Notes under the pieces: model-generated
What the model was told of the DNA's origin: nothing
Database searches by the model: none
Seen by the model: only the letters and a program-made list of their open reading frames with translations
Virus record (IMG/VR): IMGVR_UViG_3300020048_000043
Span: 62,001 to 122,295 of that record
DNA from: an uncultured virus (IMG/VR IMGVR_UViG_3300020048_000043)
Lineage: Duplodnaviria > Heunggongvirae > Uroviricota > Caudoviricetes
Length of the DNA stretch: 60,295 bases
Strand: one strand, 5' to 3'
Made by a program: the position numbers and the translations under genes
Shown here: in pieces, positions 3,564 through 42,739 of the stretch
Layout of the letters: each line of letters begins with the position of its first letter
How positions within the stretch are numbered: the stretch's first letter is position 1

Positions 3564-6500
3564 CTAAAAATGAATTTTTATTCCACATGCTTTTAAATAT
3601 GTTTTAAATGTTTCCAATGTAACTGTAGTGAATGAAATAGGTTGGTACAAATTTGAACGTTGATCGTATTGATGTTTAAAAAATCGATATCTTTCTTCTG
3701 GATTATCTGCTTTAATACTAAAAAATTCTTGAATGGTACCCCAAGCTTCATACGCAAACAAACTCCACATTTCCATTTCACCAAATCTATGTGAATTAGA
3801 ACCCGATGTAGGTTGTTCGTGTTTTCCATAAACACCTATACTTCTACTAAATATTTTATGTGAAGGTTCATGTTGAAGACGTAATACATACATTAAACCT
3901 ACACAACAATCTTTTATATCACCATTAGGCATGATTACTTTTTCATATTTATTTACACCAGCATAATTCATAGCATTGATAACCATTTCACTTGTAGCAC
4001 TTTCGAATGGTGGTTGGATAATTTGTAACCCGTTTTTACGTATATCTTGTATTATATCTGGATATTGTTTTACATGTGCTTTACACATATTTGTGTATTT
4101 TTTATCTGGTGTATTATCTAAAATAGAAATAAAATCCAAACATTTATTTATTAATTCTTCATCCGATAAGTGTTTATTTTTTTGTATTAAATTATGTGCC
4201 GCCCATGTAATATGAACTTCAAAAATTTGTCCAATATTCATTCTAGATATAACACCTAATGGATTGAATAAAATTTCCAAAGGAGTTCCATCAGATAATT
4301 TCGGCATTTGATTATCTGGTAATATTTTTGATATGACTCCTTTATTCCCATGTCTGTTAGCAAGTTTACTACCTACAAACAATGGTTTTTCACTTACAAT
4401 TTGGTAATCTATTACACATGTTTTAGATTGTATTTTACGTTTATTTTTAATATATGTATAACGTTCTCTTTCTGGTGGGGCATCAATTATATCTGTCAAT
4501 GCTTCTATTAAAACATTTTCTTGAATTTCTTGTTCTTTCAATGTATCTTTTAACCATTTAGACATCAATGAATGAGCAACTGTTTCTTTACGTATTTTTA
4601 CATTAGCATAGAATTTTCCATTAGATGGTGAAAGAATACTTTTATAACATGGAATCAATGCGGAAATATTATCTGAAGCCAATTTACTAATTTTAAATAT
4701 TTCTTGACCTTCATATATACGTTCCCCATTACTTGGCATTGGTTTATATTGTGTTTCATCTATAAGAGAATATAACACTTCTTCATCTAGTTCTAGCCTA
4801 TTTTGTTCTATACATTTATAAGCAAGTTTTTTTGCTGCGGATTCACTTACAATTATAGCATCTTCATAATTCCATCCATGATATGGAAGAAACCCAATAA
4901 GCATATTTTTACCTAACATCAATTCTCCTGTTTCAGAATTAATATTGCTAGTTGCTGCTAGAACTTGATTTTTAACAATAGGTTCATTGTGTTTAATATA
5001 TGGTATAAGTGTTTTATCAAAATCTAAAAATGCTTTGTATGAAGTATCAATAACTTCACCACTACCATTTTTATAACTTATAACCCATACTCCATTATAA
5101 CCACTATCATAATTACATACACCATCATCTTTAGCACGAATCAATGAAGAACAATATTGCGTATATGTTGCTTCATAACCAGATTTAAATAATGGCACTT
5201 CCGGTTCTACTAAAGATATCGTTTGACGCATCTGGTTACATGCCATTTCAATACGAGTACAATCATTATTAGCTAAACAAGGTATTTGTTGTGATGCTAC
5301 AGAAAGAATAGGTATATTACTTTGTGTGTTAGAATAAATATTATGTAATATACCATTTTGTAAAATTGTTTCTGGAACCATGTGTTGACAAATACCTATA
5401 GCATCACCTGTTGGTGTATCTATTGGATCTATTACACCATAATAACTTTCATGTAAATTTCTTAATCTAGGATTACTAGATTCTTTTGATATACCCCCAA
5501 GACCATTATAAATAATACGACTCATCATACATAGTTCTGCTAATGGATTTACAGAATCATCTAAAATACGACGTTGATCTGTAGCAAGTACATCCATAAT
5601 AGCATTACTAAATACATTAGTTGTATTTTCTACAATGTTCTTTTTATGTTGTTGGACTCCCTTATTGGCTTTTAGCAACAATTGCTGTCTATATGCCTTG
5701 GCTTCGTCAGTTTTCTGTTGATGCTGTTTACGAATGACAGTCGCTGGAGACNNNNNNNNNNTTATGTTGTTGTGCTAACTTATATAATAACCATTCTGCT
5801 AATCTTATTCTTCTTTTTGAAATATCATTAATATCTCTTTGTTCCAATTTAAAATCTGTTGTTAGTATATGATATAAAACATCTACTGTTCTAAAGGGTC
5901 CTTCAAACAACCCATTAGGTATCATAATATGATCATAGATGTTAACAGCATGTACTATATTTTTATTTTTAGTATCTGAAAACCAAAAATCTAATAATTG
6001 TCCATATGTTTCTTCAACATCTGTATATTCAAATATCTTTTGTTCATATTTGTCTAAATCTTTTGTTTCTTGTGTAAAAGGTAAAAACATATGAATTATT
6101 TTTTCATTATCTGTTTGAACGTTAATAAATGTTCCATCACATATTGGAATATTAATACCAAAAGACAATTTTTCTGATTCGTATGTATATTTTAGTTGAA
6201 GTTTGTTAAGAACATTTTCATATGATTTTTCTACTTCTACTAATAACAAAAACACAGGCCAAAAATGTTTATTGATTTTATAAAATGAAAGTGTAGAATT
6301 CAAAACGAGTAAGCTATATGTATTTTGAATAATAACTTCCATTTCATTTTTTGTAGATAATTTTGCTTGTTTTTTGAATATAGGCATATCCGCAATTTGA
6401 AATACAGGAATCCAACGTATACCGTCTACAACAAATGCTAAATTTCTATCAATAATAGGTATTTGGATTGTAGCTATTTTTTCTGATCCATCTTCATTTG

Positions 6501-6696
6501 GTTCTTTATGTTTAAAACTTAAAATATATCCATACGTTGGATTAGCTGGATCAGAAATTATATATTCTATATGTTGAAATATATAACCTAAAGATTCGAG
6601 AATAACAATAATTGTATTTTGTAAAGAAGCATATTGTTTCAACCGTTCTTCAAAAATATTATTCTCTGGAGGTGTAGCATATATTAATTTATTCAT
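3564..6696 (-). CDS. rpoB: DNA-directed RNA polymerase beta subunit, set 1 (about 1004 aa; broken in the assembly by an N gap plus 97 extra nt)
   Basis: [62 protein letters not shown]; the two ORFs rejoin in frame across an 11-nt repeat flanking the gap. Confidence 0.88.
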
Positions 6697-41200: not shown

Positions 41201-42739
41201 TAATAATTTTTTATGTTCTTCACCATGCTCATCATAAAAATGATAAAAATATGATGTTCCTTCATATATTCCTTCTTTATGTAATTCTTTTATTTTTAAT
41301 GAATGACCTTTTCTTGAACATTCTTGTGAACAAAAATCTGATAAACGGCCAGATGATATCCTATCCGACCAAAATGTAGTAATTTCTTTATTACATATAG
41401 GACATAATTTTTGATATGTTTCATCTTGTAAAATATATTTTTTGTAATATGTTAATAACTCTATATTATGAACTTTTTGTAAATGTATTTTTAATAGAAA
41501 AAATTCTTTATTACATATTAAACATAACATGTTAAATTCTCCCTTGTTCGGCCAAGAACAGTTTAGCTGCTGATTATCTCTTTTGAGACTTTCCAGCAAT
41601 TAGAGGAGTTGTTTTTATGCTGTCACCAGCATAGCAGACAGTGACGGTAGTTTATCTGCATTATAACCGTCTGTTATAAGTGGGTTGATATGAAAACTAT
41701 CACTCCAAACTATAACTGGATAAAATGCTCTTAAATTTAAACGATGTAATGCAGGATCTCTTTTCAATACAACAACTTTTTCTGTACATAATTCATTGAG
41801 AATTTTTAAAAATAATGAAATAATTGTTGGATCTAATAAATCTTTTTTTCCTTCTTGAATCATATTAATCATATTACCTATATTAAGAATAGATGGTCTA
41901 ACAATACCCAATTTTTTCCAATCTTCCGCATATTTTGTTGTAGACTTATGAATAACAAATGGTTTAAAAATAGCAAGAGCAATTTTAAAAGGAACACCTA
42001 CTTTATTAGGTGGTATTTCAGGATCACCAATAATAACTGCCCTAGCTGAGAAATCCATTGATTTTCCTAATAATGATTTACGTTGTACTCCTGCTTTTCC
42101 TTTTATCAAATCTTTTAAAAGTTGGTATGCTTCAAAAACATGCTGTTGCATTTTTTGCAACAAATCTTTATAACTTCTAGATTTTATATCTGTAGTATTG
42201 ATAACTTGAGATTCATTCAACATATTAATATATTTTTCGTTAATAGGATCCATATTAATACGTGAATTTTCTATTCGTATAGGTCTAAACTGTGGAGGTA
42301 ATACAAGTATCTGTGAAATGAATGCTTTTTCTTTATGTTTGATAATGTAATTTATTAATGTTTTACTAGCTTCTGTAATATCTTTTTGTTTCAAAAATAT
42401 TTTTTGACAATATTTTATTTCCTCTACAAAATAATCTATACCCCAAGCTCCACTATTACCATCTACTAATTTATCATCTATAATAGACATTTTGCCTGTA
42501 AAAAATTTTTGTATTGTACTACATCTTCTATCTGCTATTTCATATAATAATGGGTGTAATACTTTACATTTTAAATCAATAGAACCATATACGGTTCTCC
42601 ATTTAGAAGAACCGTATAGGCCAAATACAACATTTGAAAATAAACCATTTGGATCAAATTTATCACCAATCATAATATTAGATGTAGTGATAAATTTGAT
42701 TTCATTATCTTCAATATATTTTGCTATATCAAGTAACAT
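38238..42739 (-). CDS. rpoC: DNA-directed RNA polymerase beta' subunit, set 2, spliced: exons 42739-41654, 40631-39471, 38924-38238 (977 aa)
   Basis: joins restore YNAD|FDGDQM and QMTMQTF|HTGG in frame; also GKSMDFSARAVI, KRDPALHR, TAVSGYLARQL. Confidence 0.93.
38925..39470 (-). mobile_element. ORF-less group II intron (546 nt)
   Basis: 5' GTGCG, 3' AT; domain V GAACGCCGTGTGCGGTGAAAGTCGCAAGCACGGTGT with CGC triad; domain VI; domain IV reduced to a short hairpin. Confidence 0.93.
40632..41653 (-). mobile_element. group I intron (1022 nt, IA-like) carrying a homing endonuclease
   Basis: exon ends in U, intron ends in G; P1 GCAGAU/GUCUGC; P10 CCGUCA/UGACGG; P AATTGCTGGAAA, Q AATCAGCAGC, R GTTCAACGACTA, S AAGATATAGTCTA. 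Confidence 0.95.
40817..41530 (-). CDS. intron-encoded homing endonuclease (N-terminal Zn fingers, C-terminal GIY-YIG/T5orf172-like domain)
   Basis: AGGGAG RBS then ATG at 41530; CLIC..HL..H, CPIC..FCSQEC, YLYVIE..IKLGSS..RRL..LE. Confidence 0.8.
   Translation of the reverse strand: MLCLICNKEFFLLKIHLQKVHNIELLTYYKKYILQDETYQKLCPICNKEITTFWSDRISSGRLSDFCSQECSRKGHSLKIKELHKEGIYEGTSYFYHFYDEHGEEHKKLLSELSKARALNKTSKGFNSEYSDRIRNRDNLLKRTNKEDDRYLYVIEFDDKIKLGSSSDFKRRLTELKAKNFIHHSFKGNAHDIINLECELLLQFQEYTLLDETQKFYTEYLSKNCLEYLLLVIKQNL

Follow-up and report, generated by a model that had tools for sequence, protein, structure and literature searches.

Giant phages such as phiKZ, AR9/PBS1, phiR1-37 and SPN3US carry two multisubunit RNA polymerase (RNAP) cores, a virion and a non-virion enzyme, which lack an alpha subunit, employ a factor of the gp68/gp226 type and are encoded by four or five genes each. 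In sequence records, AR9 g145, g189 and g264 are annotated as virion and g154 and g270 as non-virion subunits, and three phiKZ products (gp176, gp178, gp180) as structural proteins of the head; for the other phages treated here, we assigned virion and non-virion labels from gene size and layout. According to the accessible parts of PMC7598289 (2020) and PMC13282480 (2026), it is unknown whether the two polymerases arose by duplication or by two acquisitions; the former adds that the position of the jumbo-phage enzymes on the tree could not be fixed and that purification of a virion enzyme had yet to be achieved. Here, we analyzed two pairs of beta' and beta genes in a window of 60,295 nt, bases 62001–122295 of the 122-kb virus scaffold IMGVR_UViG_3300020048_000043. 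[quoted passage not shown] This reading of the mReC pairs as virion and non-virion counterparts was not found in the literature searched, which yielded no paper on dual unsplit polymerases and mostly lacked subscription papers.

Nearly all long open reading frames (ORFs) of the window lie on the minus strand. The scaffold has three 10-N gaps, none of them between window positions 5762 and 42739. Set 1 comprises a beta' gene (6706–9567, −) of 953 aa, which has NADFDGD at 376 and keeps the N-terminal zinc-binding cysteines, followed by a beta gene (3564–6696, −). As assembled, the latter is broken into two ORFs (5728–6696 and 3564–5681) because of a 10-N gap (5752–5761) and extra bases. An 11-nt duplicate flanks this gap at both sides, and in three of the four sequencing runs compared (X2, X3 and X15, the last probably DNA) contigs connect 5643 to 5762 and omit the 118-nt stretch 5644–5761; in run X1, which may come from the source sample, no contig spans the gap and no such joint is present. 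With the 118 nt left out, the bridged frame has 1004 codons and 0 internal stops, and a single ORF spans both pieces in G001, a related genome of 275 kb (CheckV completeness 100%). The stretch may have arisen during assembly or be an insert specific to a strain.

Set 2 comprises a beta' gene in three exons, at 41654–42739 (−; 362 aa, terminating at NAD), 39471–40631 (−; 387 aa, FDGD through MQTF) and 38238–38924 (−; 228 aa), and a beta gene at 33971–38218 (−) of 1415 aa, extended by some 400 residues at the N-terminus. Joined at NAD|FDGD and MQTF|HTGG, the exons give 977 aa, so that "unsplit" describes the predicted protein of this gene and not its reading frames. Intron 1 (40632–41653, −; 1022 nt) lies inside the catalytic motif and is likely a group I intron: the upstream exon ends in U, the intron ends in G, and its 3' part folds with z = −4.2; Rfam group I models gave no match at the gathering score. 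A contig of DNA run X2, one of four runs compared, omits exactly these 1022 nt between 40631 and 41654, which identifies an intronless allele. The intron contains a 260-aa ORF (40817–41599, −), presumably a homing endonuclease judging by its position; it had no PHROG match and only sub-threshold, zinc-finger-like Pfam matches. The trigger-loop codons hold intron 2 (38925–39470, −; 546 nt), a group II intron without an ORF. It matches the Rfam group II models RF02004 and RF00029 (89 and 62 bits), and its predicted D1 and D5/D6 structure, its GUGCG...AU ends (consensus GUGYG...AY) and the frame restored on its removal agree with that class. Splicing of both introns is predicted from these features; the RNA run X19 holds scattered short pieces only, and its intron-2 contig has many differences.

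The two sets share 28% identity in beta' and 25% in beta. Both retain NADFDGD, the bridge helix, the trigger loop and the two lysines of beta; the cysteine motifs number three in beta'-1, and beta'-2 has the C-terminal one only. PF01193 (alpha) matched in 0 of 5 complete related records and PF04542 (sigma-70) in 0 of 8 related records, and positive controls matched in both searches. A preliminary description of this DNA had reported two polymerases of intact subunits in one phage, both ordered beta' then beta, both with NADFDGD, and with no alpha subunit in view. The two pairs, their order and the missing alpha subunit are borne out here, as are the intact (predicted) subunits; the NADFDGD statement holds directly for set 1, and for set 2 only once intron 1 is spliced out, as predicted.

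Alignment-based locus scans returned 80 and 79 loci, among the best 80 of each scan; a single-sequence locus search with beta'-1 found no loci. The related loci fall into two classes, class A (beta' of about 890–960 aa, beta of about 1000 aa), to which set 1 belongs, and class B (beta' of about 1000 aa, beta of 1350–1550 aa), to which set 2 belongs, and beta' precedes beta in every related locus that holds both. In G001, both pairs are intronless (979/1509 and 939/987 aa). Forty-five loci on contigs of at least 65 kb were chosen for a whole-record search, which covered 40 records, and two beta genes were found in 35 of them, including 4/4 complete ones; the five single-beta records are 23–72% complete. 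The chosen set included records already showing two matches, so 35/40 is not an unbiased frequency. Over all complete related records, both pairs are present in 5/5. Together with G001, this recurrence argues strongly against a chimeric scaffold, which the preliminary description had named as an outcome that would undo its proposal.

At least 10 related records match mReC contigs by identifier and length in part 1 of the PMC7481178 supplement sheet, and in the portion of that supplement covering 22 of 118 COG0085 (beta) rows, 6 of 16 contigs carry two COG0085 genes. The lineage is therefore not new, and both it and the presence of two beta genes are already public. A word search of the main text of that paper returned no "copies", "two sets", "virion", "phiKZ" or "intron". 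Both sets have the subunit length (800 aa or more for beta and for beta') and the NADxDGD motif expected of mReC phages, at 953/1004 and 977/1415 aa, in set 2 after splicing only. Like other mReC members, these phages have whole beta and beta' genes and an RNAP branch apart from cellular enzymes; the T4 gp23-like capsid of mReC phages is seen in G001 as a Gp23-type protein (phrog_138 and phrog_20655), and no capsid gene was identified in the partial scaffold of the window. The window RNAPs group with L009 and L102, two loci from records listed as mReC, but the window, G001 and a further relative, G002, form a separate sub-branch in both classes. At least half of the sequence words of the set-1 region are present in sixteen runs, from landfill, wastewater, sludge, bioreactor, biogas and aquatic samples and plain metagenomes; runs X17–X20, with small shares, were excluded from this habitat reading. 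Because of strong AAGGAGG sites and a GC content of 29%, a low-GC anaerobe would fit as the host.

Phylogenetic trees were built on an alignment of 1017 columns. In a FastTree tree of 80 rows, class A joins the non-virion enzymes with support 0.999 and class B the virion enzymes with 0.60; in a 37-row IQ-TREE quick search under the posterior mean site frequency (PMSF) model, the corresponding values of the Shimodaira–Hasegawa (SH)-like approximate likelihood ratio test are 98 and 96, with the dual-polymerase phage enzymes together at 99 and the bacteria at 99. Bacteria are monophyletic, and Carin-5, YerA41 and RHph_Y65 branch outside the dual-polymerase phage clade. These three also have phage-encoded beta' (and beta) genes, in the order beta' then beta in YerA41 and Carin-5, but these two have one pair only, and Carin-5 has an annotated sigma gene; the cultured RHph_Y65 (L182, MN988525.1) has a whole beta' gene and no beta match in its whole record. 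Three bacterial loci without usable separate genes were left out of the trees, as were phiKZ gp123 and some small pieces, and the rows contain no eukaryotes or giant viruses. The 37-row tree leaves out the longest and gappiest split enzymes (EL, SPN3US and non-virion JD-Fnp1), and the 26-row set used for topology tests additionally leaves out Yong and virion JD-Fnp1.

Approximately unbiased (AU) tests under PMSF and LG (10000 resamples) rejected an mReC-only clade (p = 0.0015 and 0.005) and the swapped pairing (p = 0.006 and 0.007), and a clade of the split enzymes was rejected under PMSF (p = 0.009); the less powerful SH test retains all three of these phage-only alternatives. Placement of either set with bacteria was rejected under both models (p < 0.001; under PMSF, p < 1e-40), and neither pair thus falls inside bacteria, the other outcome that the preliminary description had named. 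That one pair is a recent host capture or a decaying paralog, or that the scaffold joins two phages, would agree with the N gaps and with the two interruptions of set-2 beta', and yet it is very improbable given this rejection, the intact catalytic motifs of both pairs and the joint presence of the pairs in most chosen records. Inside one phage clade, the trees place each pair with a different phiKZ/AR9 polymerase (class A with the non-virion type, class B with the virion type), which disfavours the independent origin that the preliminary description had entertained; the window state is likely an undivided form of the phiKZ/AR9 two-polymerase system.

Protein family matches follow the same pairing in large part. 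Residues 536–1202 of set-2 beta match phrog_3148 with 136 bits, where the set-1 piece reaches 55, and residues 1203–1393 match phrog_3233, the two matches abutting at residue 1202/1203. The N-terminal part of set-2 beta' favours phrog_2986 (106 versus 57 bits) and that of set-1 beta' phrog_2987 (99 versus 68), and exon 3, the tail of set-2 beta', matches phrog_2926, a virion protein family of 241 positions (E = 1.3e-4). From family lengths, we take the matched families to be those of phiKZ gp178, gp149 and gp176. In the reverse direction, the class profiles favour the matching enzyme for most pieces: the class B beta' profile scores 113 with phiKZ gp180 and 22 with the non-virion-type piece, the class A profile 44 and 61; AR9 g145 (virion) scores 165 with class B versus 90 with class A, and AR9 g154 (non-virion) 103 versus 163. 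Moreover, at least 400 residues precede the core in 8/8 virion-type beta N-subunits and likewise in class B, but not in class A. Residues 1–220 of set-2 beta form a confidently predicted domain (predicted local distance difference test (pLDDT) 87). Compared with viral models, it matched PBS1 and targets of 1393–1463 aa (E = 2e-7 to 4e-2), and four matches had E ≤ 0.001, namely proteins of 921 aa (PBS1) and 1393 aa and two targets named as polymerase subunits; several of these targets are unnamed and were counted as virion-type by length.

We lean slightly towards the view that mReC represent an undivided, ancestor-like phiKZ/AR9 system on a T4-like virion, in which one phage-level duplication would have yielded a virion and a non-virion polymerase, with a sigma-like factor besides, and would have been followed by repeated, partly intron-driven gene breaks, one of them still polymorphic near the trigger loop. 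In class B loci L092, L137, L142 and L150, beta' is cut into two ORFs 0–47 nt apart, the C-terminal piece of 226–229 aa resembling the separate virion subunit of the giant phages, and several further class B loci have longer gaps at the same site. By an estimate from profile positions, the group II intron of the window lies within about 20 residues of this break. The virion-type beta' gene is also interrupted by self-splicing introns in the AR9 record and in the accessible part of PMC12350094, a likeness to the splicing predicted here. These repeated breaks near an intron site fit, without proving it, the intron-mobility idea for gene splitting cited in the portion of PMC7598289 available.

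Several results weigh against this history. The split-enzymes clade is borderline under LG (p = 0.065 with 2000 resamples, 0.045 with 10000); branches are long, the fast searches had no bootstrap, and the alignment profile contained no split enzymes. Because monophyly of neither class A (p = 0.18) nor class B (p = 0.35) is rejected, the direction from whole to split genes rests on the outgroups; accordingly, the ancestral state proposed in the preliminary description is inferred from unsplit outgroups, and a nesting of split enzymes within unsplit ones was not established. The middle beta' piece of both sets favours the non-virion family phrog_3015, the non-virion-type beta' N-piece of SA1 scores higher with class B (137 versus 126), and by sequence the class B N-extension matches 0/8 virion subunits with residues 1–380 and 1/8 with residues 1–210. 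Finally, the tree needs two separate splits, because in both split enzymes, virion and non-virion, beta' is cut at a common site that follows the catalytic barrel, as stated in the part of PMC7598289 consulted.

This common site, together with the borderline LG test and the view in the accessible text of PMC7824862 that split versions are early, could mean instead that the split state is older or separate (a lineage of its own or relics from before the last universal common ancestor (LUCA)), that the mReC pairs arose by fusion or independent duplication, and that the tree pairing is a long-branch artefact. We regard this as distinctly unlikely. The PMSF AU tests reject both the split-enzymes clade and the mReC-only clade, and beta' is whole in bacteria, Carin-5 and RHph_Y65. 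Splits also recur: beta' is split in YerA41 and whole in Carin-5, JD-Fnp1 has a fused virion-type beta' piece of 935 aa, and the four class B loci are cut.

Just beyond the span of the preliminary description (3564..42739), the window encodes a 485-aa protein (43859–45316, −) that we predict to be a sigma-like promoter-specificity subunit. It matches no Pfam or PHROG family. Its structural model (pLDDT 74, predicted template modelling score 0.52) has only three PDB matches at E ≤ 0.001, AR9 7um0_A (E = 8e-7) and 7s01_A and phiKZ 8que_B (E = 2e-4), which we take to be AR9 gp226 and phiKZ gp68 from chain lengths and PMC7598289. The gene is single-copy in 5/5 complete genomes. A complex prediction of its N-terminal domain with both beta' clamps reached 0.08 against a mark of 0.32; the controls also stayed unfolded, and the result weighs neither way.

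These data point to a division of labour of the phiKZ/AR9 kind. With two diverged cores and one sigma-like protein of its own, the phage would run a two-stage transcription independent of the host. The head would carry set 2 (class B), which would enter the cell along with the DNA and transcribe early genes including set 1; the late structural genes would afterwards fall to set 1 (class A), likely aided by the gp226/gp68-like factor. We consider such a programme fairly probable. From the genes, their intact motifs, the clade-wide pairs, the lack of alpha and sigma-70 matches, the tree pairing and the predicted folds, we infer enzyme activity, packaging, timing, the partner core of the sigma-like protein and the order of whole before fragmented genes. 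Indirect support comes from G001: an AT-rich intergenic motif lies on the minus strand in 20/20 matches, two of them just upstream of the gyrB-gyrA-class A run, and 22/25 matches to an AACA-containing motif fall on the plus strand, where most structural genes are encoded; these counts are partly circular because 13 and 10 of the same sites went into the matrices. The late promoters of AR9 are AACA-6N, as given in the accessible part of PMC7598289.

Other observations speak against these roles. The sigma-like match has a template modelling score of about 0.35 and a high root-mean-square deviation. The sigma-like gene adjoins class B, upstream, in 27/40 loci and class A in 0/46, whereas known phages use the factor with the non-virion enzyme. 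In G001, class B is encoded on the early/replication strand and neither motif precedes its genes, the genome of the window itself (G000) has one match per G001 motif, and sigma-70-like sequences precede three of its genes; a promoter search in G000 returned only Shine-Dalgarno words and no phage motif of its own. It is conceivable, then, that with the same ancestry the labour is divided differently, both cores being made after infection or the sigma-like factor serving class B, and the host polymerase starting the early genes. The adjacency of the sigma-like gene to class B, the strand and late-type motif data of G001, the sigma-70-like sequences and a T4-like capsid instead of a phiKZ-type head would agree with this arrangement. 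It is nonetheless unlikely in our judgement: class B retains the N-terminal domain typical of virion-type subunits, the sigma-like gene is distant from class B in G012, G018 and G032, and in phiKZ neighbouring genes do not foretell partner subunits, according to the accessible portion of PMC13282480.

Other traits separate these phages from the phiKZ/AR9 type. The sigma-like gene here adjoins the virion-type pair; each core takes two genes here and in G001; and G001 combines its T4-like head with an unsplit family B DNA polymerase. Chimallin (phrog_4795) matched in 0/10 related records, five of them complete, with the phiKZ control matching, although a very distant form could escape, and tubulin likewise in 0/10; a phage nucleus is therefore unlikely.

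Directly upstream of set 1 lie genes for a gyrB- and a gyrA-like topoisomerase (9579–14415, −). The GyrB/ParE-like subunit (11422–14415, −; 997 aa) contains an intein with an HNH-like domain in its Toprim region; its G001 counterpart is intein-free and has 595 aa. The window also has a QueD/PTPS gene (14477–14896, −), and FolE2 stands directly after class A beta in 36/46 class A loci (e.g. L015:16466–17335), together hinting at deazaguanine or pterin synthesis. A TnpB/Cas12f-like ORF (15289–16416, −) has a 500-nt non-coding region and a sigma-70-like sequence upstream, and two further such ORFs occur elsewhere on the scaffold. Three tRNA genes (28402–28697, −) specify Ile, with the anticodon UAU, and twice Leu; tRNA-Ile with this anticodon is rare among bacteria. 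A gene for a PnuC-like nicotinamide transporter adjoins an AAA_28 (NadR-like) gene (29766–31750, −), a possible pair for salvage of nicotinamide adenine dinucleotide. In the 70 nt or so ahead of many genes, a strong hairpin comes first, a T-rich stretch next and a Shine-Dalgarno sequence last (45942–46014, 33888–33970, 14416–14476 and others); these could be terminators or processing sites. The scaffold end (55400–60295) holds several diverged direct repeats and paralogous ORFs.

Among the relatives, most main-clade loci have a conserved cluster upstream of class A beta' with two genes of the ThiF/E1 type, one for a Rho-N-domain protein and others for unassigned proteins of 400 and 840 aa (L013:3088–9255, L014:2900–9525, L141:1018–5388); it may be a ubiquitin-like system, and the window showed no such cluster. 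The beta' proteins P0054 and P0112, both resembling class A and one of them on a 255-kb contig, are labelled as a Candidatus Thorarchaeota metagenome-assembled genome and are probably mis-binned phage. In separate viral contigs (L034, L038–L040, L046, L048, L049, L053 and similar) and Salmonella phage Arash (L190), beta and beta' similarity lies in one ORF of 1500–3600 aa.

As counterparts of both enzymes that are undivided and evolve more slowly, the mReC genes speak for one duplication within the phage lineage, and they argue against the view of the fragments as pre-LUCA relics or as cyanobacterial inheritance. The predicted two-subunit, alpha-free cores also provide material for biochemistry: if our reading is true, a virion polymerase encoded by two genes would be the simplest one to express.

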